Assembly (NCBI GenBank): GCA_963751455.1
Contig: CAVVUN010000002.1
Span: 320,001 to 384,000, forward strand
Reading direction: 5' to 3'
From: Nitrospirota bacterium
GTDB taxonomy: Bacteria > Nitrospirota > UBA9217
DNA: 64,000 nt
The notes under the pieces were generated by a model, which worked only from the letters and a program-made list of their open reading frames with translations, had not been told where the DNA came from and did no database searches. Position 1 is the first letter of the stretch, and the number at the start of each line of letters is the position of its first letter. Shown here piece by piece: positions 43,257 through 63,878 of this stretch. The position numbers and the translations under genes are program-made.

Positions 43257-43730
43257 TTACGGCTTATAGCACCAATGAAGATTACAATCGCTCCCACCCC
43301 AGTAAATCCTCACGACCTTTTCGTTAAAGCCGTCTGGGCAAGCAGCAGTATCGCCTTTATAGGGATTTGTTGTGTCTCCGTCGCAGCCATAACCTGTAAA
43401 ATACATTCCGCCAAAGCCATAGGTCGCACCGCTGATTGTTCCGCTGATGTTTGCGTTTCCCACCACAGCCAAATTCGTTTGTGAGCTATTCGTACCAACG
43501 CTAAGTTTACCGTTAACAGTACTGTTGCCGGTTACAGTCTCGCCGTTACTGGTAACTGTGCCGTTGACCTTTAAATTGCCATTGATCTCCGCTCTAGGCG
43601 TGGGGGCAGTACCCGTACCAACTCCGAAATTGCCGTATACAATCAAATCGCCGGGTGCCGCATAAATATTTTCCGTGGTAAGAACCAAAACCGCTAAAAC
43701 GACCATAACCATTAAGACGCTAATCTTCAT
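43257..43730 (-). CDS. Secreted protein with fibre-like beta repeats and a Cys-rich tip
   Basis: Signal peptide; NFGVGT..EINGNLKVNG repeats; GGMY..C..NP..CP.G..C..WC C-terminus. Confidence 0.65.
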   Translation of the reverse strand: MKISVLMVMVVLAVLVLTTENIYAAPGDLIVYGNFGVGTGTAPTPRAEINGNLKVNGTVTSNGETVTGNSTVNGKLSVGTNSSQTNLAVVGNANISGTISGATYGFGGMYFTGYGCDGDTTNPYKGDTAACPDGFNEKVVRIYWGGSDCNLHWCYKP

Positions 43731-43808: not shown

Positions 43809-46064
43809 CTACCGAGCAACTGCCGTGGCGACGGCAGAGCCAGTGGACTCATTTCCTACCGAATCAACGGCGGATACAACATAGTAATACACTGTGCCTG
43901 CAGTAAGCCCGGAATGCGCGTAGTTCGTAACATTGCCAAATGGTATCTTTGTGCCGGTCAAGGGCGAGACATTTGACTGCGTTGACCAATAGAGATTGTA
44001 ATATGAAGCGCCCATAGAGGCTGTCCACGTCACGTTTATCATAGCTGAACCGACAGTTCCCGCCGTTGCAGCTAAACCGGACGGAGCTAAAATCGTTTCT
44101 CCTGCTGAAACAAGCGACTGAACGGGAATACTGCTGTCGGCCGTGCTGTTGTTCCCAAGTTCGCCTGAGTAATTATATCCCCACGCCCAGACCGTGCTGT
44201 CATTTCTGAGCGCTACGGTGTGAAGATGTCCCGCTGCTATTGCCGTTATGCCGGTAAGGTAGGTGCCGCAAGCGCCCGGTGAGGCACCGGCGCTGGCGCA
44301 GACCTTAACGGGAATAGTGCTATCGGTCGTGCTATTGTTCCCAAGCTGGCCAAAGCAGTTAGATCCCCACGCCCAGACCGTGCCGTCGTTCATAAGAGCC
44401 AGAGTGCGGTACAATCTCCCTGCTATTGCCGTTATGCCGGTAAGGTAGGTGCTGCAGGCTCCCGCTGATGCGCCTGCAGTTGCGCAGACCTGAACGGGAA
44501 TAGTGCTAAGAGCCGTGCTATTGTTTCCGAGTTCGCCATTATCATTATCTCCCCACGCCCAGACTGTCCCGTCATTCCTGAGCGCGATGGTGTAGAAATC
44601 TCCGGCTGCCAATGCGGTTATGCCCGTAAGGTACGTGCCGCAGGCGCCCGCTGATGCGCCTGCAGTGGCGCAGACCTGAACGGGAATACCGCTGTCAGTG
44701 GTCGTGCCGTTTCCCAGCTGCCCGTAGTTGTTGTATCCCCATGCCCAGACCGTGCCGTCATCTTTGAGCCCTACGGTGTGACCATATCCCCCAGCTATTG
44801 CCGTTATACCCGTAAGATACGTGCCGCAGGCGCCCGCCGATGCGCCGGCAGTCGCGCAGACCTGAATGGGAATAGCGCTGTTGGCCGTGGTATTGTTCCC
44901 AAGCTGACCATTGTAGTTTCCTCCCCAAGCCCAGAGTGTGCCGTCATTTTTGAGCGCGACAGTATGAAAATTTCCCCCTATTGCCGTTATGCCTGTAAGA
45001 TACGTGCCGCAGACGCCCGGTGAGTCGCCGGCAGTGGCGCAGGCCTGAACGGGAATAGTGCTGTCGTTCGTGCTGTTGTTCCCAAGCTCGCCACCTGAGT
45101 TATATCCCCACGACCAAACCGTGCCGTCATTCTTGAGTGCAACGGTCTGAAGAGCTTCCCCTGATATTGCCGTTATGCCGGTAAGATACGTGCCGCAGGC
45201 GCCCGCCGAGGCGCCGGCAGTGGCGCAGACCTGAACGGGAATAGTGCTATCGGACATACTGTTGTTCCCAAGCTGGCCAATCGAGTTAAATCCCCACATC
45301 CAGACCGCGCTGTCATTCTTGAGCGCGACAGTATAACCAGATCCCCCTGCTATTGCCATTACCACTCCAGGAGTGGCAGAAACGATGCTTGACTCCACAC
45401 TTTCCCCATAAGCGTTCACTGCTGTTACAACGTAGTAATATGTTGTTTTATTGGTAAGGCCTGTCTGCGTGTAGGGGCTTGTCGCGTTCACGATTTTCGT
45501 TCCGGTTGACTTTGTGACAGTGGACTTTGTTGACCAGTAGATGTTGTACGACGTCGCGCCCGTAACAGTGTTCCAGCTTATGATGTTCTGTCCATTGCCG
45601 GCTAATACGGTAAGACCGATCGGGGCAGATGGAAACACTTCTGCTGTTGCGGGCGTTGCGCTCACCTCACTCGACTCTTCGCTCTCCCCATTGCTATTCT
45701 CTGCCGTTACCACATAATAGAAAGTCGTATCGTTTGACAGGCCGGCATGGATGTATGGACTTGTTATATTGGAAATCGTTGTCCCTGCCGTATTTGTAAC
45801 ACCTGATGTTGTTGACCAGTAGATATTGTACGACGTTGCGGCGGTAACACTGTTCCAGCTTATGATATTCTGTTCATTACCCGCGGCTGCGATAACGCCG
45901 GTCGGAGCAGATGGAAGCGTTGTTCCTGAAGACGTTCCGCTGCTATGTCTCCCGCCCTTGCAAGCCGACAACAGCGCCAGGAATAAAACAGCACCAAGAA
46001 GCAGTTTGTAAGAGGCTTTCCCTGTGCATATCACAACGAACCTCCTTCTTATCACATGCACCAT
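43809..46064 (-). CDS. Lipoprotein with FN3 domains and an RCC1-like beta-propeller
   Basis: LLSAC lipobox; three FN3-like units (SYNIYWS..YYVVTA); seven VWAWG.N..GQLG blades with a ~186-bp DNA period. Confidence 0.85.
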   Translation of the reverse strand: MVHVIRRRFVVICTGKASYKLLLGAVLFLALLSACKGGRHSSGTSSGTTLPSAPTGVIAAAGNEQNIISWNSVTAATSYNIYWSTTSGVTNTAGTTISNITSPYIHAGLSNDTTFYYVVTAENSNGESEESSEVSATPATAEVFPSAPIGLTVLAGNGQNIISWNTVTGATSYNIYWSTKSTVTKSTGTKIVNATSPYTQTGLTNKTTYYYVVTAVNAYGESVESSIVSATPGVVMAIAGGSGYTVALKNDSAVWMWGFNSIGQLGNNSMSDSTIPVQVCATAGASAGACGTYLTGITAISGEALQTVALKNDGTVWSWGYNSGGELGNNSTNDSTIPVQACATAGDSPGVCGTYLTGITAIGGNFHTVALKNDGTLWAWGGNYNGQLGNNTTANSAIPIQVCATAGASAGACGTYLTGITAIAGGYGHTVGLKDDGTVWAWGYNNYGQLGNGTTTDSGIPVQVCATAGASAGACGTYLTGITALAAGDFYTIALRNDGTVWAWGDNDNGELGNNSTALSTIPVQVCATAGASAGACSTYLTGITAIAGRLYRTLALMNDGTVWAWGSNCFGQLGNNSTTDSTIPVKVCASAGASPGACGTYLTGITAIAAGHLHTVALRNDSTVWAWGYNYSGELGNNSTADSSIPVQSLVSAGETILAPSGLAATAGTVGSAMINVTWTASMGASYYNLYWSTQSNVSPLTGTKIPFGNVTNYAHSGLTAGTVYYYVVSAVDSVGNESTGSAVATAVAR

Positions 46065-46232: not shown

Positions 46233-47213
46233 TTAGAAACGCGCAGCCAGAGTGAAGTTAAATGAGTTTGCGTCTCCAAAACCGAGGTTATTATCGGTCA
46301 GATGGAAACGGCCATAAGCACCGGTCAGAGAAAGCCGGCGAGTAAAAAAATACTCGAAATTCGCCGAATAAGTTCTACCTCCCGGGATAGCTGAATAAGT
46401 TCTACCTCCCGGAATAGCTAGTGACTTGCTTGAACTGTTTTCAAATCCTATTCCCGCACTCATGCGTCGGGTCCAGTAATAAACAAGCGACACCGATTCA
46501 GTAGTGTTTATTGGTTGTGCACTATGTACTGATCTCGTCTGGTTGATTCTTGATTGGAAACTTACGCTCCTGTCGCGGTTCAGTTGACGCACGTATTTTG
46601 AAACAACGCCATAGCCAAGTGTTTCCGAATTTAGAAAAAACATATCTGGATTGACATTAATCATATTTATCGCTTCTGCGTAATTATAGGCAATCTCGAT
46701 ACCTACTAGTAAGGAATTCGTAAGATAATTTCCGATGCTTATTCCTGACTTATACTCCCTAGTTTCCCCCTGGCCAGAGTCATAGAAACGAAGTCTAGAC
46801 TTGTCAAACGATATTGCAATGGCAAGAGGGAACCCAGGCCTTGCATAATTAAGCACGAATTGTTGCTCCGGTCCGGTCCCATGCCGTATTCCAGATCTGA
46901 AGTCCATGTGCTGCCAACTAAAAAAAGCGCTGCCGATATGCTCAAGAAATGCAGCTTCTGCATAAGGATGGTCTACAGTGCTTACGGGAGCAAAGAATAT
47001 TTCTCCTGAAAATCCGTACGAAATCGTCCTGTTATCTGTCGGCTCTTCCGGCATCAAAGAAATGAACGTTGCCCTGCTATCCCGAGAGTCAATCCATTGG
47101 TAAATGGTTGATATCTGCGCCTGGTACTGGTCCTCACCAAATGCTACGTTGATACAAAGCACAAACGAAATCAATGCAACCATGCTGCTCTTTTTTTTCA
47201 TGCGCTTCTCCAT
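46233..47213 (-). CDS. Putative outer-membrane beta-barrel (porin-like)
   Basis: Signal peptide, PYAEAAFL motif, amphipathic strands, C-terminal Phe; 27-bp tandem duplication at 46366-46419. Confidence 0.6.
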   Translation of the reverse strand: MEKRMKKKSSMVALISFVLCINVAFGEDQYQAQISTIYQWIDSRDSRATFISLMPEEPTDNRTISYGFSGEIFFAPVSTVDHPYAEAAFLEHIGSAFFSWQHMDFRSGIRHGTGPEQQFVLNYARPGFPLAIAISFDKSRLRFYDSGQGETREYKSGISIGNYLTNSLLVGIEIAYNYAEAINMINVNPDMFFLNSETLGYGVVSKYVRQLNRDRSVSFQSRINQTRSVHSAQPINTTESVSLVYYWTRRMSAGIGFENSSSKSLAIPGGRTYSAIPGGRTYSANFEYFFTRRLSLTGAYGRFHLTDNNLGFGDANSFNFTLAARF

Positions 47214-47615: not shown

Positions 47616-48154
47616 TCATTCACGTCCAATCGCGTCGTTAAACACTATATCCTTTGCACCCCAATCAGAATGATATTTACCCTGCTTCACATATCTGTGA
47701 AAACTCGAATATCTCCATTTCAATGGCGCTGTCGTTAAACCATGTTTAACGGGATTGTAATGTATGTATTCGACATGCCGTATATAATCCATATCATCTT
47801 GTGTCTGATGCTCCCAAAACGTCGCTGCCAGATATATTGTTCACGTTTCGCTGTCCTGCTCGCGCGTTGCCTGCTTTCAAACGGATCATGACAGATCCTT
47901 GTAAAATTGCTCTTGATCAGCATCCACCGCTTTGAATATTCATTGTCGCCTGGAGGCAATGTCCAAAGGCAATGAAGGTGATCCGGCAGCAACACGATTG
48001 CATCCACAATCAACGGATACTTCGCTTTGACCGTCTCAAATGCCTGCCTCAGGAGCCTCGGATTCTCACCCAGGCACAATATCTTTTTCCGCTCATACGT
48101 TACGACCGTAAAGAAAAAAGTTGCTCCTGGTGTTTGCGAACGTCTATAGCGCAT
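47616..48154 (-). mobile_element. REP-associated tyrosine transposase (RAYT, TnpA-Y1), frameshifted near 47818
   Basis: MRYRR..GATFFFTVVT, LPDHLH (HUH), WQRRF then WEH..YIHYNPVKHG..WRYSSF in the shifted frame. Confidence 0.88.
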
Positions 48155-48182
48155 CTGTTTTCCATCATCACTCACAATATGT

Positions 48183-48211
48183 GTTGGGCAATAAACCTCT
48201 GCCCAACCTAC
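48183..48211 (-). repeat. REP element, inverted relative to the one at 47573
   Basis: Reverse complement reads GTAGGTTGGGCAGAGG..TGCCCAAC. Confidence 0.8.
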
Positions 48212-48218
48212 CGGCTGA

Positions 48219-48306
48219 TATTGCCATAACGACTCCAGGGAGTGGCAGAAATGATGCCTGTCCCCGAGCTCTCCCCATAAGCATTCACTGCTGTTACAAC
48301 GTGGTA
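48219..48306 (-). pseudogene. Degenerate copy of part of the FN3-RCC1 lipoprotein gene
   Basis: Aligns by eye with 45351-45437 (TATTGCCAT..CTCCAGG.AGTGGCAGAA..CCCCATAAGC.TTCACTGCTGTTACAACGT). Confidence 0.75.
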
Positions 48307-48389
48307 TTTCCCTTGCCGCCATAATAATAATCGTAGCCAATGGACATAAGCCGGTGCTCATAATCAAAGGTATACCTGCTGCCATACTT

Positions 48390-48764
48390 TCAAGGTCCGA
48401 CCCCGCTCCCGCTTTTTTCCGCTTGCTTCTTGTTCTTACTGCCAACGAATGGAAGCCATGCATCTGTATTTCCAATCAGTATCATTTCGGGCTTTGTGCT
48501 TTTCTTCTTCGGCACGACTACTTCAACACCAATTGGAACACGTTTGAAATCCATCGCAATCCATTTGTAACTCTTTAAACCATTCTGACGGCTTTCAATT
48601 ATGGGAGCAGCAAATAATTTACTATCGATTCCATATTCAAAAAAATAATCTTGGTACATTTCATTTGCAATTTCGAACATCTCTTTATCTGAGCGATCAC
48701 TTTGAGTTGTGCAACCTGCAAGCAGAACAATTACTGCACTAATTTCAATAAGTTTATTCATCAT
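48390..48764 (-). CDS. Lipoprotein, putative periplasmic immunity protein
   Basis: LLAGC lipobox; low GC; directly downstream of a toxin-tip remnant. Confidence 0.65.
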   Translation of the reverse strand: MMNKLIEISAVIVLLAGCTTQSDRSDKEMFEIANEMYQDYFFEYGIDSKLFAAPIIESRQNGLKSYKWIAMDFKRVPIGVEVVVPKKKSTKPEMILIGNTDAWLPFVGSKNKKQAEKSGSGVGP

Positions 48765-49133: not shown

Positions 49134-49748
49134 TCAAGGTCTCTTCCCGGGAGTGAGAGTCCCTTCCTCACCCGAACCAATAAGATCCGCTGTTGGAATT
49201 AACCTGCAATTCTTTAGCTTATTCTTCTCAATAAACTCTTTCACTCTTTCTGTAACTATTATGAACTTCGGCAATGGCCATATAGTAAAAAAATCAGAGC
49301 CATCCCATTGCGATTCATCTACAAACAAACCTTTTCCAAAGTCTGTATATATTTTGTGACCGCATGCGGTGCACTCGTACTTTAACTTGATTTCTGATTT
49401 CGGATGTGCATTGCCGCCATTACCTATCACAATAAACTCCCACAACGGAGGCACCGCGTATTTGCTCCCTCTTCCAACCTTATCGACGCCAATAGGCTTC
49501 AGCGTGTAGCCGGTAAAACCTGCCTCTTCAAACAGTGTTGCCACTTCTTCCGTGATTATCCAATCACTCAGGAAAGTCGTTATAAAATGAGGTACCTTTG
49601 CAGACTTCAAGTCGATTTTTAAATCCCCGATTCTCGTGCCTGCACGCTGATGTCCTTTGTCGATAGGACATTTTATTCCTTCCCAGTCAGTTCCCTCAGC
49701 GAAATCTGCCCTACTATAATCTTTTATAGACAATTTATAAAAAATCAT
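49134..49748 (-). CDS. Immunity protein, double-CXXCG / Imm11-like
   Basis: CPIDKGH and CTACG; IITEEV..F..GFTG; DESQWDGSDFF; IIVTERVK; follows the toxin gene. Confidence 0.7.
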   Translation of the reverse strand: MIFYKLSIKDYSRADFAEGTDWEGIKCPIDKGHQRAGTRIGDLKIDLKSAKVPHFITTFLSDWIITEEVATLFEEAGFTGYTLKPIGVDKVGRGSKYAVPPLWEFIVIGNGGNAHPKSEIKLKYECTACGHKIYTDFGKGLFVDESQWDGSDFFTIWPLPKFIIVTERVKEFIEKNKLKNCRLIPTADLIGSGEEGTLTPGKRP

Positions 49749-49806: not shown

Positions 49807-51063
49807 CTATTTTAACCTTCGCCATGGTATGCCAAATTGTATCACCATTGTGTCAAGGTGTTCTAATATTTGTCTATCATTAGCAGTGGGGTTTTTCTCA
49901 AAAAACTGATACCAAGCTTTATTCCAGTTATTCTGCCCGGTGTGGATACCATATGGCTTAAAGATGTGAGCATCTGTTGCGAGGTTAACAGTGAATTCAT
50001 TTATGTTGAGACCTGCTTTTTCAAAATGTGGAGCAAGTGTTCTTGCCTGTGGTAAAAGATGGTGGACTTGATATCCCGGTATCCTTGCCATCTTCACCGG
50101 CATAAACATCAATGGCATTTCATAGAAAGAATGCGGTAACAGATAATTCGTAGTTTGAATGCCTAACCAATCAATACCAGCAGCTATGTAATTCCCAGCT
50201 TCCCAATTTTCGTCGCATCTACCCTTGATATAATCTCGAAATCCACTGAATAAGCCGCTTGACTCTCCTGTTATATCAGAATTATATCCTACTGTGCTGT
50301 TCCCCCATTCACTTCCCCAACTCAACGATGAATTGCCACTGTTTGAGTCATACGGCACAAAGCTACTTGATGAGTAGGGCGACGATAGCTGGTCATAATA
50401 ATTAAAATAACCATAATCCCTATTATAGGGGTCTGCATAAAAGGTAAGCGAGGTATCATATTCATCATACCCGCTGGGGTCAATATAGCGAAGCGGACTA
50501 TTCAAAACATAGCTGAACCGATTGAGCGCCTGTGGATTGGTAGGATCAGAGACTACTGGATTAGCGCTGATAAACCTTCCAATCGACGGATTATAGAACC
50601 GCGCATTGTAATTGTACAGCCCCGTCTCGGCATCAAACTCCTGTGAGGTGTACTTATGGTTCACGGACAGGAGTCCGTAATCGCTCAGTGTTTCTCCGAA
50701 AGGACGATAGCGGATGGTATACACTTTCTCCTTGGCGTAGCTTCCCGCCATGACCTCGAAATTCCCCATGGTCACGGTGCCCTGGCTGATTATGAGGCTG
50801 TTTACGAGCACGGAATTTTCGATCTGCTTCGTGTAGCCACAGTCGTATCCCCCCTTGATCGTTACGTTGACCGGGCGGTTGAGATTGAGTGGGATTGGCT
50901 CGGAGGTAAAGTTTACTGCGCGCGCCTGGATGATGTCGCCATTGACCGCTACATTATAGGCCACACGAAGCAACGAGTAATAATTATAGACCGATGTTCC
51001 GCGCAATATGCGGACAGGCGGTTTGGAACATGCGCTGTTCTGGATGGCCCCCGTCTGGGTCAC
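49807..51063 (-). CDS. Orphan Rhs core + DUF2380-like (HH-motif) toxin tip
   Basis: Rhs core LYNYNARFYNP..DPSG; tip HHLLPQ..F..GLNI..H..IH..WN..W..FF. Confidence 0.78.
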   Translation of the reverse strand: MTQTGAIQNSACSKPPVRILRGTSVYNYYSLLRVAYNVAVNGDIIQARAVNFTSEPIPLNLNRPVNVTIKGGYDCGYTKQIENSVLVNSLIISQGTVTMGNFEVMAGSYAKEKVYTIRYRPFGETLSDYGLLSVNHKYTSQEFDAETGLYNYNARFYNPSIGRFISANPVVSDPTNPQALNRFSYVLNSPLRYIDPSGYDEYDTSLTFYADPYNRDYGYFNYYDQLSSPYSSSSFVPYDSNSGNSSLSWGSEWGNSTVGYNSDITGESSGLFSGFRDYIKGRCDENWEAGNYIAAGIDWLGIQTTNYLLPHSFYEMPLMFMPVKMARIPGYQVHHLLPQARTLAPHFEKAGLNINEFTVNLATDAHIFKPYGIHTGQNNWNKAWYQFFEKNPTANDRQILEHLDTMVIQFGIPWRRLK

Positions 51064-52879
51064 GACCTGGGTGCGCCACCTTAATAGTTGCTATTCAATT
51101 TTCAAAGAACATCTGTGCACGATATCGTGGAAGTAACATTTGTGCCTATCGAATCCCAACCGCTTTGAGGAACTGGCCCATAATCAACTGAACTGCTAAA
51201 TAAACACATAGACATAAAAAGAAGCAATCATATATAACAATACTAAAACGCTGTTTATATTTCTCTGTTTCAAAGTTTCCATTTTATAATTCTCTTCGAT
51301 GATTTTGTATTTGTCGTGATAGACAAACGAAAAGTAAAGTATAATTGTGACCATGAATAACAGAAATAGCTGGACAACCTTGGGCAAGTGCTGAACATCA
51401 ACATTTATCAGACCTAGTTTTCGTAATAAAAGAACTATCGTAAGCACATTCAAAGACGCGAATATCGACACAATAAACATGGCCTTGTATTCAGGGACGT
51501 CTTCAGCTCCCCATTTTTTTAACTGCCACGTGTAAGTTCGGTAAAAAATATATTTATAAATATTCATCATATATCTCCTGGCACTCCCGGCATATTGTAT
51601 ATGACCGGAATGGGATACACTATTACAGGTGAAGGAGGACCTTCAAACCCACCCATCAAATCTGCGGCCCAGTAACCCACCCCGGCACCCACACCGAATG
51701 GCCCACCGATGAGTCCATAAAATCCAACACCCACATCCAGCGCTGATTTACTCGCTTTATCATAGTCACCCATTTGGTAAGCATTACGATACTGTCCGAC
51801 TGAGAGAAAAGTAGAAGACATAAAAGTCGCGTAGCCGCCCATCCTGAATAATTTTGCGTTTCTCAACGCAATAGAACGAGCGCTGGTCCATTGATTACCG
51901 CCCCAACGGTTAGAATACCATTTCGCGTTTATACCGCGCCAATAACCTTCAAATTCATTACTGTATTCGCCTGCCGCAGCCCCTGTACCTAATAGATTTA
52001 AAACACTCCCGGCAACGAAAGCAGTGTTATTATTCCACCGGCTTTCATTTTCATTACCAGTCGCGTCTGTGTTTGGCCAGGGTGTACTCGTATCATATCC
52101 GAAAGTGTAGGACGGCCAATTATTGCTTGCTAAGCTATGCAAGTCATACGGCACAGAGCTGTTTGATGAGTACGGAGAAGAGATCTGATCATAGTAATTG
52201 TAATAACCAGAACCACCCCAATCAGAATAGCCAATATTGTGCGAGTAAGCATAATAGGAGTCATATTCATCATACCCGCTGGGGTCAACATAGCGAAGCG
52301 GACTATTCAGGACATAGCTGTAACGGTTTAGCGCCTGAGGATTGGTAGGATCAGAGACTACCGGATTAGCGCTGATAAACCTTCCAATCGACGGATTATA
52401 GAGCCGGGCATTGTAGTTGTACAGCTCCGTATCGGCATCAAACTCCTGAGAGGTGTATTTATGGTTCACGGACAAGAGTCCGTAATCGCTCAGGGTTTCT
52501 CCAAAGGGACTGTAGCGGATGGTATACACTTTTTCCTTCGCATAGCTGCCCGCCATGACCTCGAAATTCCCCATTGTCACGGTGCCTTGACTGATTATAA
52601 GGCTGTTTACGAGCACGGAATTATCGATCTGCTGAGTGTAGCCGCAGTCGTATCCGCCCTTGATTGTTACGTTAACGGGGCGGTTAAGATTGAGGGGGAT
52701 TGGCTCGGACGTAAAGTTTACTGCACGGGCCTGGATGATGTCGCCATTGACCGCTACATTATAGGCCACACGAAGCAACGAGTAATAATTATAGACCGAT
52801 GTTCCGCGCAATATGCGGACAGGCGGCTTGGAACATGCGTTGTTCTGGATGGCTCCGGTCTGGGTCACAACCTGGGTGC
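50456..52879. repeat. ~620-bp direct repeat of the Rhs core (50456-51074 versus 52261-52879)
   Basis: Near-identical DNA at a constant offset of 1805 bp; differences mostly synonymous. Confidence 0.9.
51196..51570 (-). CDS. Membrane immunity protein for the main Rhs toxin
   Basis: Three hydrophobic helices; overlaps the toxin stop codon; AT-rich. Confidence 0.7.
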   Translation of the reverse strand: MMNIYKYIFYRTYTWQLKKWGAEDVPEYKAMFIVSIFASLNVLTIVLLLRKLGLINVDVQHLPKVVQLFLLFMVTIILYFSFVYHDKYKIIEENYKMETLKQRNINSVLVLLYMIASFYVYVFI

Positions 52880-55800
52880 TGCCGAGATGGTCGCCGTGGT
52901 AGTAAAGAACATCGGACCCGGTCTTCGTTGCTATGCGCGTGTCTCCGGCGAAGATGGCCTTGGCGCACGTATTCAATACGCACTCGTACAGTTTCCCAAG
53001 ATAGATGTTTTCGCCGCTCGAAGTAGATTTCTTGACCCGCGTACCCGCGCCATCGTACACGAAACTTGTGGTCGCGTTGTTTAGAGTGACGGACTGCGGC
53101 ATGTTGTCATAATCATACGTAATCGATCTGTAAACCGTTGAACCAGTGCTTTCTGTTATCAAATTCCCGTTCAGATCGTAGGAATACGTCATGCCGGTTG
53201 TAATGTTAGATTTAACAGCATGGGGATGGAGACCCGTGCTGTCAGTGTGGTCATAAGTGATGCCTTCTTTATAGCTGATATTACCAGTTTGGGAATAGTT
53301 ATAGAAAAGGTCGCTCACGCCTCCAAAGCTGGCGGCGTTCGGGGTCTGTGCATGCTGAATGCGGCCCAGACCGTCATACTCAAACCACTGAGTCATTGAG
53401 TAATCGACACTGTCGACAATGTTCTTAATATTTCCCCCTGGGTAATAATCATAGGCGAGATTAATGAGCGTCTGGTTCGTAGTCCCGGTGACGATTGATT
53501 GTAGGTCGTAGTTTGACGTGCTATACATGTAATTCGTAATAATGCCGTTGCCGTATGTAATCGTCCCGGGCTGGCCTATTGCATTATACCCGTTGTACGC
53601 CGCGTAATTAACAGCGGTGCCGGTTACAGACGAAAGGACGCCGGCAGTATAGGCATAGCTGACTGTTTCGTTATCAGGATAAGTAAGGCTTGCAGGCCTT
53701 CCGAGCGCATCATAGGTCGTCTTGAACGTATAAGAGGGAGTGACGTTGACGACTGATTTTGTTGTTTGGGATGTTCTGCCCAGCATGTCATAGTAATACT
53801 TTGTGGTGCCCGAGGCGTCGGACATTATTGAGAGTCTACCGACAGGATATGTGGTAGCTGCGTCATCTGGTGCGACATCGTAGGTGTAGTGAACGTCGGT
53901 CATGTTTACCGGTCCGTTTTTCGGATACTCTTTCCAGAGGAGCCTGTTCAATGCATCATAATGGAAGTATATGGGGTTCGTGCCCAAGCTATTAGCGTTA
54001 GCGTCCGTTTGGGAGGTAAGATTGTTGTTGGCGTCAAAGGAGTAGCTCCATTGGCCCATATCCGGATCTTTCATGTAATATTTTCTGCGGAGTGAATCGT
54101 AGCGCATTTCTGTTTGGTTGCCTTCGGCGTCCGTTACATAGCGGAGATTGCCGAGCACATCGTACTGGTATATGGTCGTCGCATAGGGCGCTCCTTGATC
54201 GGTCGTGCAGGAGGTGAATGCTGTACCAGGATTATATTCATCGACCTGTATAAGGCGGCCGAAGACATCTCTTGTTTCGCGCTTCTTATTGCCATCAGGG
54301 TCGATCCACGCCGTAACGCCATTCAGGTAGCAGGACTTTACAATCGTTCCATCAGAATTGGTTTTCTGCGTAACCCGGCCAACGGCATCATACTTTAACA
54401 CCTGTGTAGGATAGCTTGCAAGACCCTCGAAATAGGGGAGAGAAGAGATATAAACAGCGCCTCGAGCATCATAGGTTCTGTCGGTGCTGATCACTTTGTT
54501 GTCGGGTGCTTGGGAAAGGGTCTTGATGGTTCTTCCGAAGCCATCAAAGAAGACTTTTTTCCAGATAGTAGCGCCGGTTGAATAATCGATGGTTGAAGTG
54601 ACGGTTACATGCTGCTGTCCGACCGACCCAAAGCTATTATAAGAATATGACACCGTCCCATTTGAAGATGCAATCCCGTATGGATCAATTACCTTTGTTT
54701 TGCGGCCCAGAGCGTCATATTCGGTAGTGGTAGCGACGAGATTAGGGTCAATTACACTCGCCACCTGGCCATACAGTCCTTTGTCGGTCGATGCATTGAT
54801 CCCATAATATTGAATCGTTGTCCATTGGTCTTTGTCGTTTGTTTTACCTATAGGGTAAGTGTTTGTTGCTGTGTCATAGAAAATACGGGATTTTTTTCCA
54901 TTGCCATCGCGTGTGCAGACGAGGTTGCCGTATCCGTCCGAATCATAGGACATATTAATTTCGGGATCTGTTGCTCCTGTGGGCTTAGAATTGAGCCATC
55001 CGACGATTGTAGTAACATTACCGTGGGTTGGAATCTGGTTCGTGTACCCGGCCGGCATGGAACGTGTTTCACAGTCAGACGGATCATCATAATAGTATGT
55101 AGTAGAAGAGACTAGTTGTCCAGAAGAATCATATATCTTCTCGTACTTGGGCAGCCCGACTATGTAATTTTCGGTACTGTCCGTCGTGAAAGCCCTGGCT
55201 ATAGTCCGGTAAGGCGCTGATGCATTTGCAGAATTATACTCTTGTTCAGATGTTACGTTGCCATAGCCATCGTAGGAATAGTTTGTTTTTTTGTTCTGGC
55301 CGCTTGTGGAATCGTTGCACGTTGTCGTTGTGCTGCCGTCGCAAATATAGGTCTTAGTTGTATCAACTGCATTAAAATATCCGCCATTAGCGTTTATAAA
55401 GGAGTGGTAAATGATTGCCGATTCACTGTATATTGATCCGTTAGCATCAGTTACTCGTGTGTGATATGGCTTACCCTTTAAATCGGGTACTGGGGGATAG
55501 CATGCACATGGTTTGCCGGGTTCTGGTGAGCACGGCGTACAAGGTAAACCGGTAAGCACATTATAGTATTCAATCCCCTGGTGGAACCAAGTCTCAGTTA
55601 TTTTCCGCTCGTCATATGGGTCAGCAGGGCCGGTGACTGTTACATGATTGAAGCCTCGGAAGTCGCGCTCGGTGATGTGGTAGTAGCCACCTTCGTAGCC
55701 ATATTTTGTCTCGGCAAGATTGCCATTGCCGTCATCTCTTATAACAGAGCTGACGGTTTGAACTGAAAAAGGAAGCTGCACATTCGAATATTGTGTAGAT

Positions 55801-57986
55801 GGCGTATAGCTAATTCCCACGCTACCACCGATACTATTGAAAATCTTTATGAGGAGATTGCTCGCTTGGTCCGGATTGTCCGGATTGTCTGCCGGCCCAA
55901 CAGCTGTCGCAACCACCGGAATTCCCTGTGACGAAAACAAGTATCGGCCGCTGAGGAAAACAACATCAGTTCTGCCGTCGCCATTGAAATCGCCGATATG
56001 ATACCGTTTGATATTGTCGTTGCCCCATGTCATTGTGCCCCACGGCGATGAAAAGGTTTTAAAATTGCAACCGGCAGAAAGAGCTACCGAGAGGTTTCCA
56101 GATTGATCTATGAAAAGAATATCGGTCATGCCGTTTCCATCATAATCAGCAAACTTATACCGAGTAATATCGCCATTGCCCATTGAAATGGAAGGCATCG
56201 CAGTGATAAAAGCAGAACCCGTAGAGAATTCCGTTTGTATATTGCCGTTAGAGTCAATATAGATAATATCCGCCTTGCGGTCTCCATTAATATCACCAAC
56301 AGCGTACTGAGCCGGAATATCTCCATGACCCGAAGTTGCCCAGGGGTTTGAACTAACAACAAAACCTATTTCTGAATATGTGGCAACTTGAAGATTCCCA
56401 TCGCTGCCAATATAAAGAACATCTGCCTTTCCATCACCATTGAAGTCCGCAACTCTATACCTCGCCTCTTCACTATTACCCAATTTTGACGCAAACGTAT
56501 CAGAAACAAAACCGGCTGTTGAAGATCCTGTAGACAAATAAACATTCAACGTACCAGTCTGTACAGATAAAATATCAGCCTTTCCATTTCCGTCAAAATC
56601 TGCAACAAAATTCTGTTCAGGATTATATGCATTCACTGTAAGCCATTGTTCAACTGATCCAAAATTGGCGCCCGTAGATAGTGCAACATCAAACACACGC
56701 ACACCACTTATATAATCACGGTAGGATAAAAAAATATCTGCTTTACCATCTCCATCAAAATCTGCTGGATAAATTATCGTGTTGTGGGTATCGCCGATCC
56801 TGCCCCAAAGAGTCGTTATAAAATCAGATCCGGTCGATGAACCAACCGTCGCATATTCATTTCCCTGTGAATTAAGATAATCAATCCTAAGAATATCGCT
56901 GCGTCCATTTCCGTCAAAATCACTAATCTTATAATGACGTGACTCGACAAGATGGCCGAGACTTGATTTCGTACTGACGATAAAACCGGTGCTCTCCGGT
57001 GAGTAATCCATAATTGTTTCAGGCAATGGGCTCGTGCCATCTTTGCCTAATTGCTGGATGCCTCTTAAAAGAGTCCGAAAAGTATTGGCACTCTCTCTAT
57101 AGTTAAATTTATACGATCGAACGAGATTATTATTGGCAGTTATATCTATCCGGTCAAGGCGATACACGGTCTTGACCCCAAAATTCGGCGTGTATATTGT
57201 CACAGCATCCTGGCGTGCGCCGTCATCTCTTACGAACGTTATTCTGTTACTCGACATAATCGACGTGCTAGGCCATGTATAGTCTATATGATCCAGATAA
57301 ATATGTCCTTGATCTTTAAAATAATAATATTTTATATAATTGCCATTCGCGTCCATTTCTTGATCAAGGCACCATTTGAATACTTTACTCGCGTCGGCCG
57401 CAATATTATGGGCCGGATCGTCCGGTTGATCCTGTCTTGACTCGGAACTCTGGCCGAAGAAATAATGCGTGCCTGACTTGTCAATGACTTCCCAGGACGT
57501 AGGTCTTCCTGTTGTACTGTCCGTGGAAACCTTAAATTTTAAAAAACCAGTTTCTATTGTAGCGCGGTATTCGCCGTTTCCGATATTCGTCAGTCCTATA
57601 GTGTTTCCACCGGTTTTGAAAACGTAGCTATTTTTATCATAATTAACGCCGTTCTTTGTGCTACGCTCTATGGAGTCCACTTCAAGCTGCCATCCTAATC
57701 CAAGCCAACTATTTGACTGGTTGTTTTTATAAGTCAGGGTAAGTTTCGGTTCCATTCCGTTGCGTCCTGTGGGGACAAGAATGGGCATCAAATGTTTCAT
57801 CGCTCCCGTAAATAGGTCGGGAGTTGCTCCATCAAATTCTGAGGATGCATTATTGTCTTCGATTATTGATGATTTAAAAGATAGAGATGAATTGTCGTCA
57901 GCATCTTCTTCTCCAAATGCTGGAAAACGGAAGACTGTAGATATGAGAAGGATAAATAGGGAGAAAAGACAAAGCAGCTTCTTCAT
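51567..57986 (-). CDS. Secreted SpvB/FG-GAP/TcdB-mid/YD-repeat Rhs polymorphic toxin
   Basis: Signal peptide; SpvB-like GRNGMEPKL.L.Y..G.GW; DF.GDG..D repeats; RDFRGF; YD repeats; DHLGS..YSPFG..DPSG; Gly/hydrophobic tip. Confidence 0.9.
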   Translation of the reverse strand: MKKLLCLFSLFILLISTVFRFPAFGEEDADDNSSLSFKSSIIEDNNASSEFDGATPDLFTGAMKHLMPILVPTGRNGMEPKLTLTYKNNQSNSWLGLGWQLEVDSIERSTKNGVNYDKNSYVFKTGGNTIGLTNIGNGEYRATIETGFLKFKVSTDSTTGRPTSWEVIDKSGTHYFFGQSSESRQDQPDDPAHNIAADASKVFKWCLDQEMDANGNYIKYYYFKDQGHIYLDHIDYTWPSTSIMSSNRITFVRDDGARQDAVTIYTPNFGVKTVYRLDRIDITANNNLVRSYKFNYRESANTFRTLLRGIQQLGKDGTSPLPETIMDYSPESTGFIVSTKSSLGHLVESRHYKISDFDGNGRSDILRIDYLNSQGNEYATVGSSTGSDFITTLWGRIGDTHNTIIYPADFDGDGKADIFLSYRDYISGVRVFDVALSTGANFGSVEQWLTVNAYNPEQNFVADFDGNGKADILSVQTGTLNVYLSTGSSTAGFVSDTFASKLGNSEEARYRVADFNGDGKADVLYIGSDGNLQVATYSEIGFVVSSNPWATSGHGDIPAQYAVGDINGDRKADIIYIDSNGNIQTEFSTGSAFITAMPSISMGNGDITRYKFADYDGNGMTDILFIDQSGNLSVALSAGCNFKTFSSPWGTMTWGNDNIKRYHIGDFNGDGRTDVVFLSGRYLFSSQGIPVVATAVGPADNPDNPDQASNLLIKIFNSIGGSVGISYTPSTQYSNVQLPFSVQTVSSVIRDDGNGNLAETKYGYEGGYYHITERDFRGFNHVTVTGPADPYDERKITETWFHQGIEYYNVLTGLPCTPCSPEPGKPCACYPPVPDLKGKPYHTRVTDANGSIYSESAIIYHSFINANGGYFNAVDTTKTYICDGSTTTTCNDSTSGQNKKTNYSYDGYGNVTSEQEYNSANASAPYRTIARAFTTDSTENYIVGLPKYEKIYDSSGQLVSSTTYYYDDPSDCETRSMPAGYTNQIPTHGNVTTIVGWLNSKPTGATDPEINMSYDSDGYGNLVCTRDGNGKKSRIFYDTATNTYPIGKTNDKDQWTTIQYYGINASTDKGLYGQVASVIDPNLVATTTEYDALGRKTKVIDPYGIASSNGTVSYSYNSFGSVGQQHVTVTSTIDYSTGATIWKKVFFDGFGRTIKTLSQAPDNKVISTDRTYDARGAVYISSLPYFEGLASYPTQVLKYDAVGRVTQKTNSDGTIVKSCYLNGVTAWIDPDGNKKRETRDVFGRLIQVDEYNPGTAFTSCTTDQGAPYATTIYQYDVLGNLRYVTDAEGNQTEMRYDSLRRKYYMKDPDMGQWSYSFDANNNLTSQTDANANSLGTNPIYFHYDALNRLLWKEYPKNGPVNMTDVHYTYDVAPDDAATTYPVGRLSIMSDASGTTKYYYDMLGRTSQTTKSVVNVTPSYTFKTTYDALGRPASLTYPDNETVSYAYTAGVLSSVTGTAVNYAAYNGYNAIGQPGTITYGNGIITNYMYSTSNYDLQSIVTGTTNQTLINLAYDYYPGGNIKNIVDSVDYSMTQWFEYDGLGRIQHAQTPNAASFGGVSDLFYNYSQTGNISYKEGITYDHTDSTGLHPHAVKSNITTGMTYSYDLNGNLITESTGSTVYRSITYDYDNMPQSVTLNNATTSFVYDGAGTRVKKSTSSGENIYLGKLYECVLNTCAKAIFAGDTRIATKTGSDVLYYHGDHLGSTQVVTQTGAIQNNACSKPPVRILRGTSVYNYYSLLRVAYNVAVNGDIIQARAVNFTSEPIPLNLNRPVNVTIKGGYDCGYTQQIDNSVLVNSLIISQGTVTMGNFEVMAGSYAKEKVYTIRYSPFGETLSDYGLLSVNHKYTSQEFDADTELYNYNARLYNPSIGRFISANPVVSDPTNPQALNRYSYVLNSPLRYVDPSGYDEYDSYYAYSHNIGYSDWGGSGYYNYYDQISSPYSSNSSVPYDLHSLASNNWPSYTFGYDTSTPWPNTDATGNENESRWNNNTAFVAGSVLNLLGTGAAAGEYSNEFEGYWRGINAKWYSNRWGGNQWTSARSIALRNAKLFRMGGYATFMSSTFLSVGQYRNAYQMGDYDKASKSALDVGVGFYGLIGGPFGVGAGVGYWAADLMGGFEGPPSPVIVYPIPVIYNMPGVPGDI

Positions 57987-58102: not shown

Positions 58103-60499
58103 TTAATTATTTGACTCGTTACCATTCCTGTTCGTGCACTGGCTCCTGCCCGGCTGCAGGTCCCAGTACCCGAGGGAGTAATACTGTTCGTTGATATAGG
58201 ATGCAATTTCATTGGCCTTGGTGAAGTTGCCTTCGAGGAAGAGATCCAGAACAATGTGCAATGCCTCTCCCGGATTGGTGAATTCCGCGGTGTCTGCGGA
58301 GATAGAAGGGTCTGTTCCATCGCTTGTGTAAATCAGGCTGTTGGAATAACTGCTGTTATAGAAGACGTTGCTTTCTTGATAAGCATCGCTTGCGCTGCGT
58401 GAACCGTCGAGTTCAATGCCCACAGAAAACGTGCCGCCGGCGGCCGCTGTGAGGTCCGTAAAAAATCCGTTGCCAAGGCTGACATTGACGTTTGAATTCT
58501 GTGCGAGAAGCGTAGTGTCTGCATAGAGAGCGCCGCTGCCTGCGCCATCGAATATGGTCTGCGCAGAAGCGATTTGCGGATCGTCTTTCAGGGCGTGTAT
58601 CTTGATGAAGAAATCTCCAGTATCCGGGCTGCTGGAGCCCGAGTAGATCACGAGGTCGGCGCTTACGATTGCTGCACCTTGGGGTATCGATTGCAGGTTA
58701 AAGGTGTAAAAGGGGCGGGTTTCGATCAGTCCATGCATGTAATAATTATCCGTATTGCTTTGATAGGTATACTCGTATTTACTCGCATACGAGTATGAGG
58801 TTAAAAATTGATCATAATAGTCCTGCTGGTACTGAACTCCGTTCTCCTGTGTCTCATAGAAATCCCGGTACACGTATCCTCCGGTGGCGTTTATGGTGAC
58901 CGTTTTCCGGGCTCCATCGATTCCGAAATAGGTGAGGTTCAAGGAAGTCGTTATTGCCCCGCTCCCGATATTGCGCGCGAGAGCGCGGATCTGGCGAACT
59001 GCTGCCTGGGAATGTTTATACGAAGCCAGGTCGGTTCCCGTCATATCTTGTTGAACCATTACTGAAACGGGTAAATAAGTTGGACTTGGCTGATAAGTGG
59101 CACTATTTCCGGAAAGTTCGTATATAAGTGTGGGATTAAAAACGTAAACACCAGGTGACGTGTCGCACGATATCGTGATGGCGGCAACGACTGTGACGGT
59201 CCCGCCGGGTTGAACCGATGTGGACGCGGTCCACGGCGCTCCGTAGTTTCCTGCATCGGTAAATTCTCCGCTCCATCCTGCCGGGAGATTTGCTATTTTC
59301 AGTGAACCCGATTTTGTTATATATGCCGTGCTGCTGCCGGTGTTCATAAGCGTTATATAGGCGAGGAACGTGCCGCCGGGGAGCATAGATGTCGGATTAA
59401 CAACGGCGGACGTAATTTCGGCGGACAGCGGCGGGCTGAGCGCTCCTACCAGAAGCTGCGTTACAGCCTGACCAAGGGTGCCGGATATAGCGGAGATGTT
59501 CTGGCCGTCCATTGCATAGACTATGCCTGTCCCTTGCGCACCGATATTCTCCGGGGGTTCCCCGGTCCCGAAGAAAAGAGTGGTGCTGTTCGCAACCATC
59601 GACAAGACTGCGCCGGAACCTGAATCCGCCTGTTCCCACACGAGCGCCATCGCGCCGTTGTCCCATCGGTATAGCTGCTCTTTGTGTCGATTGTCGACCG
59701 TCGTTGCCATGCCGATATACAAGTTGTCACCGTATGTTTGCATTGACCGGATGGTCGAAAAGTCAATTCCCGAAGTTTGTTGAGTAAAATTGATCCCGTC
59801 AGTCATTTGATATATCGAACTATCGAAAGAACCTGCAAAAAGCTTGGTCTGAAATACTTCCATGGCTTGAATGCCGTTTCCGCTCGCGTAGCTCACTTGT
59901 TCAATTCCAGTCCCGTCAAAGCGGGCGATGAAGTCAGTATTTGAGTCGCCGATATAAAGGTAGTCGTTCCATGGATAAAGAGTTTTGAACCCCTGCCATC
60001 CTGATGAAAGTGAACTGGAATCCGCGACTTTGGTCCATTGCATGTCTCCGTCGAATCTGAAAAGCTGTCCGACACCCGCGTTAACGTTTCGAGCGGAGGC
60101 ATAGAGCTGTTCCTTGTATACGGCAAATTTTTCTACTTTAGCATCAAAAGGCGATGAAACGGGACTCCATGAAGTGCCCCCAGCATACCGGTAGATAATG
60201 GAAAGTCCGTCCCACGCATTCTGGGAGGCTGCGGCATAAAGCTGTCCTTGAAAGATTATGATGGCATCTACCGATACACCCAATTCGCCTGAGATAGCTT
60301 CCCATGCAGCCACGATGCTCTCGGCGTTTTCTTGATATCTGTATACTTTACCGGGCTTAGAGGTGGCGGCATAAAGACTGCTCTGCTGAGATGAGGAATC
60401 GCTGATCAGGGTCGGGGAAGAGGTTGTGCAGGAAAGGAGTCCGACAGAAATGAGCACAATGATGAACGTTGCGAGCAGTGTATATTTATTGGTGCGCAT
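58103..60499 (-). CDS. Large secreted lipoprotein (beta-propeller + Ig-like + beta-sandwich)
   Basis: LLSC lipobox; repeated F/Y..LYA..YR.DG blades; FNLQSIPQGAAIVSADL. Confidence 0.65.
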   Translation of the reverse strand: MRTNKYTLLATFIIVLISVGLLSCTTSSPTLISDSSSQQSSLYAATSKPGKVYRYQENAESIVAAWEAISGELGVSVDAIIIFQGQLYAAASQNAWDGLSIIYRYAGGTSWSPVSSPFDAKVEKFAVYKEQLYASARNVNAGVGQLFRFDGDMQWTKVADSSSLSSGWQGFKTLYPWNDYLYIGDSNTDFIARFDGTGIEQVSYASGNGIQAMEVFQTKLFAGSFDSSIYQMTDGINFTQQTSGIDFSTIRSMQTYGDNLYIGMATTVDNRHKEQLYRWDNGAMALVWEQADSGSGAVLSMVANSTTLFFGTGEPPENIGAQGTGIVYAMDGQNISAISGTLGQAVTQLLVGALSPPLSAEITSAVVNPTSMLPGGTFLAYITLMNTGSSTAYITKSGSLKIANLPAGWSGEFTDAGNYGAPWTASTSVQPGGTVTVVAAITISCDTSPGVYVFNPTLIYELSGNSATYQPSPTYLPVSVMVQQDMTGTDLASYKHSQAAVRQIRALARNIGSGAITTSLNLTYFGIDGARKTVTINATGGYVYRDFYETQENGVQYQQDYYDQFLTSYSYASKYEYTYQSNTDNYYMHGLIETRPFYTFNLQSIPQGAAIVSADLVIYSGSSSPDTGDFFIKIHALKDDPQIASAQTIFDGAGSGALYADTTLLAQNSNVNVSLGNGFFTDLTAAAGGTFSVGIELDGSRSASDAYQESNVFYNSSYSNSLIYTSDGTDPSISADTAEFTNPGEALHIVLDLFLEGNFTKANEIASYINEQYYSLGYWDLQPGRSQCTNRNGNESNN

Positions 60500-61125
60500 G
60501 GTCCCTCCGATCAAAGCAAGATTGGCACATTATTTTTATCCTTTTTAAAGAATGGGCGGCAAGAAAGGGCAGAATTTTGCCGTTTCTACAAAACTAATAC
60601 TTTTGTTTGAATAAGTATAAGAATAGTTAGAATTAAAAAATTATTCAAGAACTAATTCGGGTTATTTTAAGGGTATTGCACAGTGTTGCGATAAGTTGCT
60701 AATGAAGAATAAAGGATAAACAAATAAGGAGGTTGGACGATTTAAGGTGCTAATTCCGGATCATTCTTGTCCTGTAGTTTATCTAAACTTTGAATTTTAT
60801 GTGTCAAATTTTATGTGAGGGAAACAGGGAACATCTTAGAAGGTCTTTCTCCTCGCACCCAGCCTGCACGTCCCAACCTGGCGAACCACTCCGCGAGGGA
60901 AGTGATTCCAATTCAGATCTAGTTGCCTCCGCAAGCGATCACCGTTTATTCTGCTATATGTTTTAAAACACTTATGCACTTATGCATTTATTTTATCCGT
61001 CAGTTTGTGGCAGGCCCCTCTGTGTTTCGCCGAAGAAGTTTCTCTCGAGGTTTCGAGTCTGTTGAACCGGCGGTATAGCGCCTGCTCAAGCTCCGGAAGC
61101 AGCAACGGCTAAACCCTCTGATGTC

Positions 61126-62481: not shown

Positions 62482-63054
62482 CGTCATTTACGCCCAATAC
62501 ATGCCTTAAATTGCCTTGCTTCTCATCGCCTATCCACAGGTCCTCAACTTTAGCAAAATAGAATTAAATTAAAAGAATGCGACAAATAAATATAGAACTA
62601 AAGAAGACATACACAAAGGAGATTGCTCATACATATGTTTACACGTTTAGTAAGGGCATATGCGAATGCATGAAACTGAACATAATTTCAATGCAGCTAA
62701 CTGTTCATATATTAAAATTTATCTGGTAAAATTATCCTAATTTAGTTGACAAAGCGGATTTAAGAGGTACTGTTATATAAAGACTAAGTATTCTGCATTA
62801 AAGAATTACCTTCTAATTATTTAAGAATATAGTTCTAAATTCTTACAAATCAATGATCCTCCTGTTCTGGTCTTTCCCTGTTTTGAAGATTTATCTTCGC
62901 TTCATTGCTTAATGTGAAGCAGTAAAGTGAAAGAATGTGATTATCTTTACGATATATCTCCAGTTATAGCTTCGGATAGAAATAATCTGTGCAATCATTC
63001 CCGGCGGTAAGAGTCCATATTAAAGGCGATATAGAAATTTCTGCGGAGGACAAA

Positions 63055-63537
63055 GTGAAACATACGCAAAATATAAAAACGCTATTATTCGTCGTTGCTG
63101 CCGCGACACTAATCTCCTTTCCTTGCGTGATGGCATATGCTGCTGAGAATGTCCTTCACTTTTATGATCATCTAAATCGCCTGACAGAGTCTCGATATTC
63201 GGACGGGACGACAGTAACCTATGGTTATGATAAATTAGGTAATCGCATATCAAAGAAAAAATTATACAGCCCTCATGTACTAACGATTCAAAAAACAGGG
63301 TTGGGGACCGGTACAGTTTTAAGCAGCCCATCCCGAATAAATTGCGGACTGGACTGCTCAGATAAGTTTAGTGAAGGGACGGACATATCCCTCACTGCTA
63401 TACCTGATTCGGGATCTTCGTTTAGCCAATGGTCCGGCGGCGGATGCGGTGGAACAAATCCATGTCCGCTCACACTGACAGCGGATACGACAGTTACGGC
63501 TTTATTTTCCTGCCTGGTCCGCAGAATCTATGGATGA
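63055..63537 (+). CDS. Secreted YD-repeat + InlB B-repeat-like protein, probably truncated
   Basis: GGAGG RBS + GTG; signal peptide; YDHLNRL..YDKLGNR; GTGTV.S.P..INCG..C..LTA.PD.GS.F..WSGGGC. Confidence 0.7.
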   Translation: MKHTQNIKTLLFVVAAATLISFPCVMAYAAENVLHFYDHLNRLTESRYSDGTTVTYGYDKLGNRISKKKLYSPHVLTIQKTGLGTGTVLSSPSRINCGLDCSDKFSEGTDISLTAIPDSGSSFSQWSGGGCGGTNPCPLTLTADTTVTALFSCLVRRIYG

Positions 63538-63629: not shown

Positions 63630-63878
63630 ATGCTCATTAAGACGTTACTGAATCGGACAGAGAATGTCAAGCCGTTCATTTTTGGAGTAGCTCGGTTTGA
63701 GGTCGTAGAGGGGCATGACGCATTGGTTGTGGAGGTCGCGTTCCGGAAGAATTCGCGACCGCTCTGTCCCATTTGCGGGCTCAAGTGCACTGTGTATGAT
63801 ACCCAGCGGCCCCTCGAGGTAGCCTCAGGATCTTCCGGCGCTCTTCCGGTGCGCCGCGGCCGATCTGATAGGATTTGA
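63630..63878 (+). pseudogene. ISL3-family transposase N-terminal fragment
   Basis: MLIKTLLN..LVVEV..RKNSRPLCPICG....YD zinc ribbon, then similarity is lost. Confidence 0.65.

Follow-up and report, generated by a model that had tools for sequence, protein, structure and literature searches.

A domain inserted in the Rhs core of a Nitrospirota protein, a candidate socket for phage-like fibres

We looked at an Rhs protein of 2139 amino acids (aa) encoded in a 64,000-nucleotide stretch of DNA from a Nitrospirota bacterium (GCA_963751455.1, contig CAVVUN010000002.1, positions 320,001 to 384,000; hereafter the window), in which the loop before the core is split by an additional domain that we named X. 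This domain belongs to a large mobile family unnamed in Pfam and NCBIfam. Gene context makes it moderately probable that X is a socket docking a trimeric phage-like targeting fibre onto the Rhs toxin shell, in cis in this protein and via a separate adaptor elsewhere. More tentatively, and with somewhat less than even confidence, we propose that X and fibres carrying a signal peptide make up an undescribed extracellular plug-and-socket system. There, X-bearing cargo (Rhs shells, proteases, glycosidases) would be joined to an exchangeable phage-derived fibre, giving a needle-free targeting independent of a type VI secretion system (T6SS), and Rhs proteins would join by core-loop insertion, by a YD adaptor acting in trans, or as shell and plug exported separately.

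Domain X in the Rhs core loop

The features on which the description of X rests are the following.

51567..57986, minus strand: putative Rhs polymorphic toxin, 2139 aa, signal-peptide-like start by inspection, Pfam and NCBIfam matches
52539..52853 (about), minus strand: 105-aa net insert in the DHLGS...YxPFG hairpin, from motif spacing
52554-52835 (aa 1718-1811), minus strand: folded domain X within the insert, a mini right-handed beta-helix by structure prediction
52275..52514, minus strand: Rhs repeat-associated core directly after the insert (TIGR03696, aa 1825-1904, E 5.5e-19)
49807..51063, minus strand: orphan module with X (50749-51036), core and an alternative tip (DUF2380 / SitA6-like), from Pfam/NCBIfam matches and alignment

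The Rhs protein was found to consist, in this order, of a signal-peptide-like stretch (read from the sequence by eye, without a predictor), SpvB, an FG-GAP propeller, TcdB_midN, RHS repeats, the core and a variable tip. Its DHLGS motif starts at aa 1699 and its YSPFG motif at aa 1825, a spacing of 126 residues, whereas the same scan gave a spacing of 21 for the eight other genuine DHLGS/YxPFG pairs of the genome (plus one spurious long match). Therefore, the net insert is 105 aa, in agreement with the first-pass annotation, which had described an extra domain of about this length between the two motifs. The same annotation had stated that an orphan copy retains the insert in frame; this was confirmed, the orphan reading frame being 97% identical to the window Rhs over 112 aa. 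A DNA repeat of 738 bp, 88% identical (52142-52879 versus 50346-51074), ends after the core.

Seven further Rhs proteins (P0007, P0096, P0094, P0134, P0090, P0060 and L083) carry the insert at this site, with spacings of 121-126, indicating that it is neither chance nor an assembly slip. The cores of three more sequences, L084-L086, match those of P0060, P0094 and P0090. When a tree was built from the flanks, the six Rhs with the insert that were included fell into a single group, with modest, unstarred support (83/92). Across proteins 43-61% identical in the region, the insert remains in frame and keeps its Cys pair and GGY motif.

Sequence searches with X gave no match in Pfam, NCBIfam or PDB, and Foldseek gave none in PDB or BFVD at E<=0.001, so that the insert does not correspond to an Rhs subdomain already named in the two family databases. 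Relatives of X were also absent from the viral contigs searched. In contrast, the X profile matched 2,924 cluster representatives at E<=1e-10 and 6,405 at E<=0.001, the weak tail of the latter possibly containing ordinary beta-helix caps. The AlphaFold2 model of X, built from 61 sequences, has a pLDDT of 91.5 and contains a hairpin, one helix and parallel strands; X is thus predicted to be a miniature right-handed beta-helix of about two coils. The best structural match was to residues 10-101 of pectin methylesterase 1xg2 (Z 6.6, root-mean-square deviation 2.2, 73 aligned), the top five matches were all beta-helices, and by profile comparison a full-length beta-helix protein has a cap homologous to the first half of X (E 9.8e-6, probability 82.5%). 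The cap helix and first coils of such proteins (pectin methylesterase 1xg2, PL lyases, DUF1565) superpose on X; unlike them, X has no more than about two coils, contains a C...GGYDC pair and is a stand-alone, repeatable module. In 222 domains, the most conserved positions were Gly, Ala and Tyr. Atlas scores, taken as leads only, reached 0.89 for the best match of X and 0.84 for that of the fibre, with DUF1565 clusters at 0.85-0.86.

Fibre genes and gene layouts linked to X

Small genes recur in loci with X; their products have a signal peptide, ANGDLIVNG immediately behind it, and variable sequence thereafter. The proposed partner of X in the window belongs to this family and lies 7 kb downstream, on the same strand.

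43257..43730, minus strand: fibre-family protein of 157 aa with a signal peptide and an 'APGDLIVYG' start, the family start being shared with Collar/S74 members

The mature chains of X-linked fibres begin with one conserved strand, either ANGDLIVNG or, in a second class, [AST]D[KR]LIV. This second class, made of S74 fibres, directly follows X genes in X-rich genomes without the ANGDLIVNG class. Four of the nine X-linked fibres scanned match Peptidase_S74 or the phage Collar domain. As a separate candidate, homology between X and the fibre repeat was considered and rejected (probability 1%).

Linkage between the two partners was looked at in several ways. Model A3, made of the signal peptide and the fibre start and seeded among others with the fibres of the window, G011 and G018, matched 19 of 401 genomes of the phylum. 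X is present in 18 of the 19, and the remaining genome has its fibre match on a 5.8-kb contig. Full fibre-start matches (n=31) lay within 11 kb of X in 27 cases and began less than 150 bp from an X end in 14; for the 21 non-seed matches, the counts were 17 within 11 kb and 11 within 150 bp. We then surveyed 31 Rhs loci, some of the 22 X-less ones being more distant Rhs types. A fibre gene was present at five of the six insert-bearing loci (the other one stops 1.2 kb downstream), at all three loci with a separate gene combining YD repeats and X (YD-X gene), and at 0/22 loci without X, 10 of which extend at least 3 kb downstream. In G011, the sole X match is the Rhs insert, and the sole full fibre-start match is 1.7 kb downstream. 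Among C-terminal X genes of metagenome loci, 9/42 have a fibre gene of one or the other class right behind them, many contigs ending soon after. S74 matches were found in 17/33 X genomes versus 22/368 X-negative genomes, and the S74 fibres of three X-negative genomes have a different start motif and a different neighbour protein. X subtypes also cluster by neighbouring fibre class, which was not counted as co-evolution since kin share labels.

Two further groups of loci were seen. Non-Rhs cargo with an internal X and an adjacent fibre gene is encoded at L022:6630-15524, L019:5976-8849 and L038:6658-10569, indicating that the X-fibre pair is not limited to Rhs. At L079-L082 (family f17), S74 fibres with another N-terminus adjoin signal-peptide proteins with a STWDGMTWD-like, WD-rich start and a PT linker; these are possibly a parallel fibre-adaptor pair.

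Three gene layouts were distinguished. In the first, found in the window, X is inserted in the Rhs core loop. In the second (L023, L040, L041, L004), an insert-less Rhs stands beside a fibre gene and a gene coding for a signal peptide, two YD repeats, a stalk and X. The window also holds a homologue of this adaptor, which stops where the G060 homologue enters X.

62989..63537, plus strand: signal peptide, two YD repeats and Flg_new_2; YD-X adaptor homologue, 58% identical to the part of L041:7565-8161 that precedes X

In the third layout (P0009, P0020, P0033), plug-less shells end at 'LVAKV' and run into FN3/PKD domains and X; core and tip are encoded apart, by signal-peptide genes that begin at the YFYHTD hairpin (L021). 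In the plug-less shells, the chain passes from the barrel into surface domains some 20 residues ahead of the insertion site, and this is the main reason why X is placed outside the shell. All three layouts would give the same coupling of X, Rhs and fibre. Split Rhs were seen at L021:8813-17505 (G010) and also in P0009 and P0033; they could represent an undescribed means of exchanging toxins. Beside Rhs at L004:4583-6052, L023:3010-6180, L040:5877-7097, L070:1273-5541 and window 62989-63537, there are genes for a signal peptide, two YD repeats and a stalk; the one of L070 has neither X nor a fibre in its vicinity. In trans, the YD pair may contribute strands to the Rhs shell.

These layouts bear on whether the insert could be a tolerated passenger, acquired by recombination with a neighbouring YD-X gene and playing no role in the Rhs. 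YD-X genes do adjoin Rhs genes and share YD repeats with them, and one event would suffice for the single group formed by the six insert-bearing Rhs. However, the in-frame retention of the insert with its Cys pair and GGY motif among such divergent proteins, and the fibre genes that follow insert-bearing Rhs genes, make a mere passenger very improbable.

If X docks the fibre, Rhs and fibre would both cross the inner membrane by Sec, X would be positioned outside the Rhs shell, and the fibre would trimerise. The conserved N-terminal strands of the fibre would then stack on the uncapped end of X, its variable tip would bind the target cell and aim the shell, and the Rhs tip would be delivered.

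Several observations weigh against docking of a fibre on X. The window fibre has no S74 or Collar match, and its trimeric state is presumed. The fold match of X (Z 6.6) is below Z 8, the level of a clear match for the tool used. A model of the C-terminal 743 residues of the Rhs retained the X fold, but its core was of low confidence and it gave no support for an outward X. A fibre-start or S74 match was found within 11 kb for only 41/112 X matches, 5/33 X genomes have neither type of match, and 2/5 X loci of this genome are devoid of a fibre gene. S74 fibres are also present in the X-negative genomes counted above (22/368). Moreover, several loci were fetched because of X, the fibres of the window, G011 and G018 seeded A3, and related genomes are not independent in the linkage counts, which could reflect co-inherited surface-protein islands. 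Since most X copies have no fibre gene nearby, there is room for roles of X in export or surface anchoring.

With regard to anchoring, X could bind a surface glycan, the S-layer or the matrix and so retain or aim its protein, the linkage to fibres being incidental via surface-display islands. The structural neighbours of X are polysaccharide-active beta-helices, its first half is homologous to a beta-helix cap as noted above, several X copies per protein would suit avidity, and exterior binding domains inserted in an RHS shell are known in SGS1 (PMC9935623, as excerpted). Contrarily, two coils are probably short for a beta-helix binding groove, and the most conserved X positions are the Gly, Ala and Tyr noted above. 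Glycan binding also leaves unexplained why fibres start less than 150 bp from X ends and why 0/22 X-less Rhs loci hold a fibre gene. We therefore consider it unlikely that this is what X does.

Carriers of X, export and known systems

X occurs six times in this genome, as two Rhs inserts, three exact C-termini and one copy directly after a signal peptide. Among the 153 proteins examined, which are the best-scoring of the 6,405 matches and whose ends were taken as given (truncation at contig ends is possible), 131 have a C-terminal copy (<=8 residues from the end). Of 58 domains in 80 metagenome loci, 42 run up to a stop codon; 15 others lie internally and one is cut. Both counts agree with the view of the first-pass annotation that the insert resembles a C-terminal module of secreted surface proteins. 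Its assignment of the carriers to Nitrospirota- and Geobacter-type anaerobes is matched, for the first part, by one named X carrier labelled Nitrospirae. Single-copy proteins (n=106) comprise 89 with a C-terminal, 11 with an internal and 6 with an N-terminal X, two of the last being truncated Rhs fragments, and up to three copies per protein were found. The passengers are diverse signal-peptide surface proteins and hydrolases, including subtilases, papain-like and M4 proteases, glycosidases, LamG and RCC1 proteins. At the level of the phylum, X was detected in 33/401 genomes, with 1-13 matches each and often one.

In P0009, P0028 and P0058, the C-termini after X consist of a duplicated motif, which we take to be dockerin-like. 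The products of L050:9170-10630, L056:3380-4486 and L057:3390-5096, which follow X genes, end in a VPT[ML]xEWG-type hydrophobic tail, presumably akin to IPTL-CTERM.

The frequent C-terminal position suggests another role, that of a folded signal for secretion or sorting, recognised by an export machine of the outer membrane, for example of type II, fibres without X riding on X-bearing neighbours. The very diverse passengers, the up to 13 X matches per genome and the 71/112 X matches without a fibre nearby are in favour of such a signal, as are the five secretins of this genome together with its lack of T6SS VipA or VgrG matches. However, L005 and L006 of this genome contain two and one Rhs genes of the same family, respectively, that lack the insert, and there is no X gene in these loci. 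Of 64 family genomes, 15 gave SpvB matches, including 7 that lack a strong X match, and in L067 and L068, from X-less genomes 98% and 100% complete, signal-peptide Rhs have a spacing of 21. In addition, X is also N-terminal, internal or repeated, some X proteins end in the presumed dockerin-like domain instead, and the distribution of X is patchy. Export by means of X is therefore doubtful, and we hold it to be improbable, though not negligibly so. The earlier proposal that the insert is a secretion signal defining a new Rhs export route is thus unsupported as stated. As to an association of X with type II secretion, secretins are present in the genome, and the outer membrane could be crossed by a type II route, but this is not tied to X. 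Neither export signalling nor glycan binding fully excludes that X docks a fibre.

The first-pass annotation had also supposed that a C-terminal domain was moved into the core loop because the C-terminus is taken by the toxin tip. This is not the simplest history, since on the X tree the four non-window Rhs-insert rows and L083 group with internal fibre-associated copies, away from the C-terminal bulk.

Other secretion systems were compared. X differs from the C-terminal sorting domain of the type IX secretion system (TIGR04183-type Ig-like tail) in having no NCBIfam match, a beta-helix model, and internal and N-terminal copies. Searches for T6SS VipA and VgrG gave 0 matches in this genome, listed as 100% complete, with positive controls, and a Pfam scan of the window Rhs gave no PAAR or VgrG domain; the protein is thus not a T6SS-delivered Rhs by its domains or by T6SS genes. 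PAAR loads T6SS Rhs effectors onto the VgrG spike, a single-chain domain of small size thereby connecting the shell with a trimeric beta-helical partner. By analogy, a fibre docked on X would resemble PAAR on VgrG. The effectors RhsA (7q97) and Tse15 (8uxt) have the same shell and core fold as the window Rhs; unlike the T6SS arrangement, Rhs and fibre here both have signal peptides and X is a predicted beta-helix near the C-terminal core.

The Rhs chassis itself is of a known class, the apparently new parts being domain X, its core-loop insertion and the fibre linkage. A 'TcdB/TcaC-like' class of SpvB/propeller/RHS polymorphic toxins was described by Zhang et al. 2012 (PMC3482391). Judging from excerpts of that source, the window Rhs shares a signal peptide, SpvB, an integrin-like propeller, RHS repeats, core, variable tip, downstream immunity gene and orphan module with this class and the fused Tc B-C shell (TcdB2-TccC3, 4o9x). 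It differs from both, within the same limits, in the 105-aa domain splitting the last hairpin before the core, in the linked fibre gene and in the Asn at the first catalytic position of the window copy. A search of the genome for TcA (PF03538) gave 0 matches, as did the control genomes. Inserted or flanking exterior binding domains on RHS/YD shells, like X, are found in mosquito SGS1, where carbohydrate-binding domains are inserted on the outside of the shell (PMC9935623), and in bacterial teneurin-like proteins (PMC13018210). These are Ig-like domains, propellers or N-terminal adhesins at other positions, and the excerpts of the two papers present none of them as a socket to which a separate fibre attaches.

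The nearest described chromosomal fibres, going by excerpts of PMC10769870, are the Bdellovibrio MATs, which like X-linked fibres are chromosomal, signal-peptide-bearing and phage-like, with or without S74, and have a conserved N-terminus and variable tips. The likeness is one of features; the conserved N-domain of MATs has about 130 aa versus a short strand in X-linked fibres. According to the same paper, the N-terminal domain of MATs presumably binds an unidentified surface element, while gene linkage names X as candidate partner for the fibres described here. Among the papers that a literature search listed, none was on X, its core-loop insertion or an Rhs-fibre adaptor or linkage.

The X-fibre pair would bear on how signal-peptide Rhs toxins without T6SS or a Tc A component find their targets, and X on what anchors chromosomal phage-like fibres such as MATs. 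The candidate pair offered by the locus is small and soluble, with 95 residues for the domain and 133 for the fibre. The locus also reveals a permissive loop beside the Rhs core, and X represents a large domain family without a name. If X is indeed a socket, it could provide a general system for fibre-targeted secreted cargo beyond Rhs.

The Rhs locus of the window and its neighbours

Three other features complete the toxin locus.

52365..52367, minus strand: Asn1874 at the first catalytic Asp position of the core, the orphan core having the same Asn
51196..51570, minus strand: 124-aa hydrophobic protein overlapping the Rhs stop, no Pfam match, likely immunity protein by position
49134..49748, minus strand: probable immunity protein for the orphan tip, matching SitI6 double-CXXCG weakly (TIGR02264, E 0.02, short of the cut-off)

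By its signal peptide (from inspection), SpvB, propeller, RHS repeats and core, the window Rhs is an SpvB/RHS polymorphic toxin type. Its variable tip, the adjacent putative immunity gene and the orphan core-tip module are consistent with this, and the protein is presumably a toxin. A homologue of the 49134..49748 protein follows the Rhs of G018. The core retains Arg1861 and Asp1901. The first catalytic position is Asp in 30/30 other core rows (some being duplicates) and Asn in both window copies, neither of which therefore conforms to the Rhs aspartyl autoprotease core. L083, the closest relative, keeps this Asp. In the PDB, 8uxt is titled as a cleavage mutant with Asp-to-Asn changes. The window copy may hence fail to release its tip, the argument on the family being unaffected.

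Between the orphan module and the fibre gene lie genes for an FN3/RCC1 lipoprotein (43809-46064) and a weakly porin-like beta-barrel (46233-47213). Upstream of the Rhs is a lipoprotein-like gene (58103-60514), and genes with a similar start were seen divergently upstream of the L005 and L006 Rhs. The stretches 47735-48475 and 63630-63878 are presumably transposase-like fragments, of the REP-associated tyrosine and ISL3 types, respectively. In G011, where the insert-bearing Rhs is in two open reading frames, L020:12924-13481 directly upstream gave no Pfam match at E 0.01; from its N-terminus, we take it to be pseudopilin-like.
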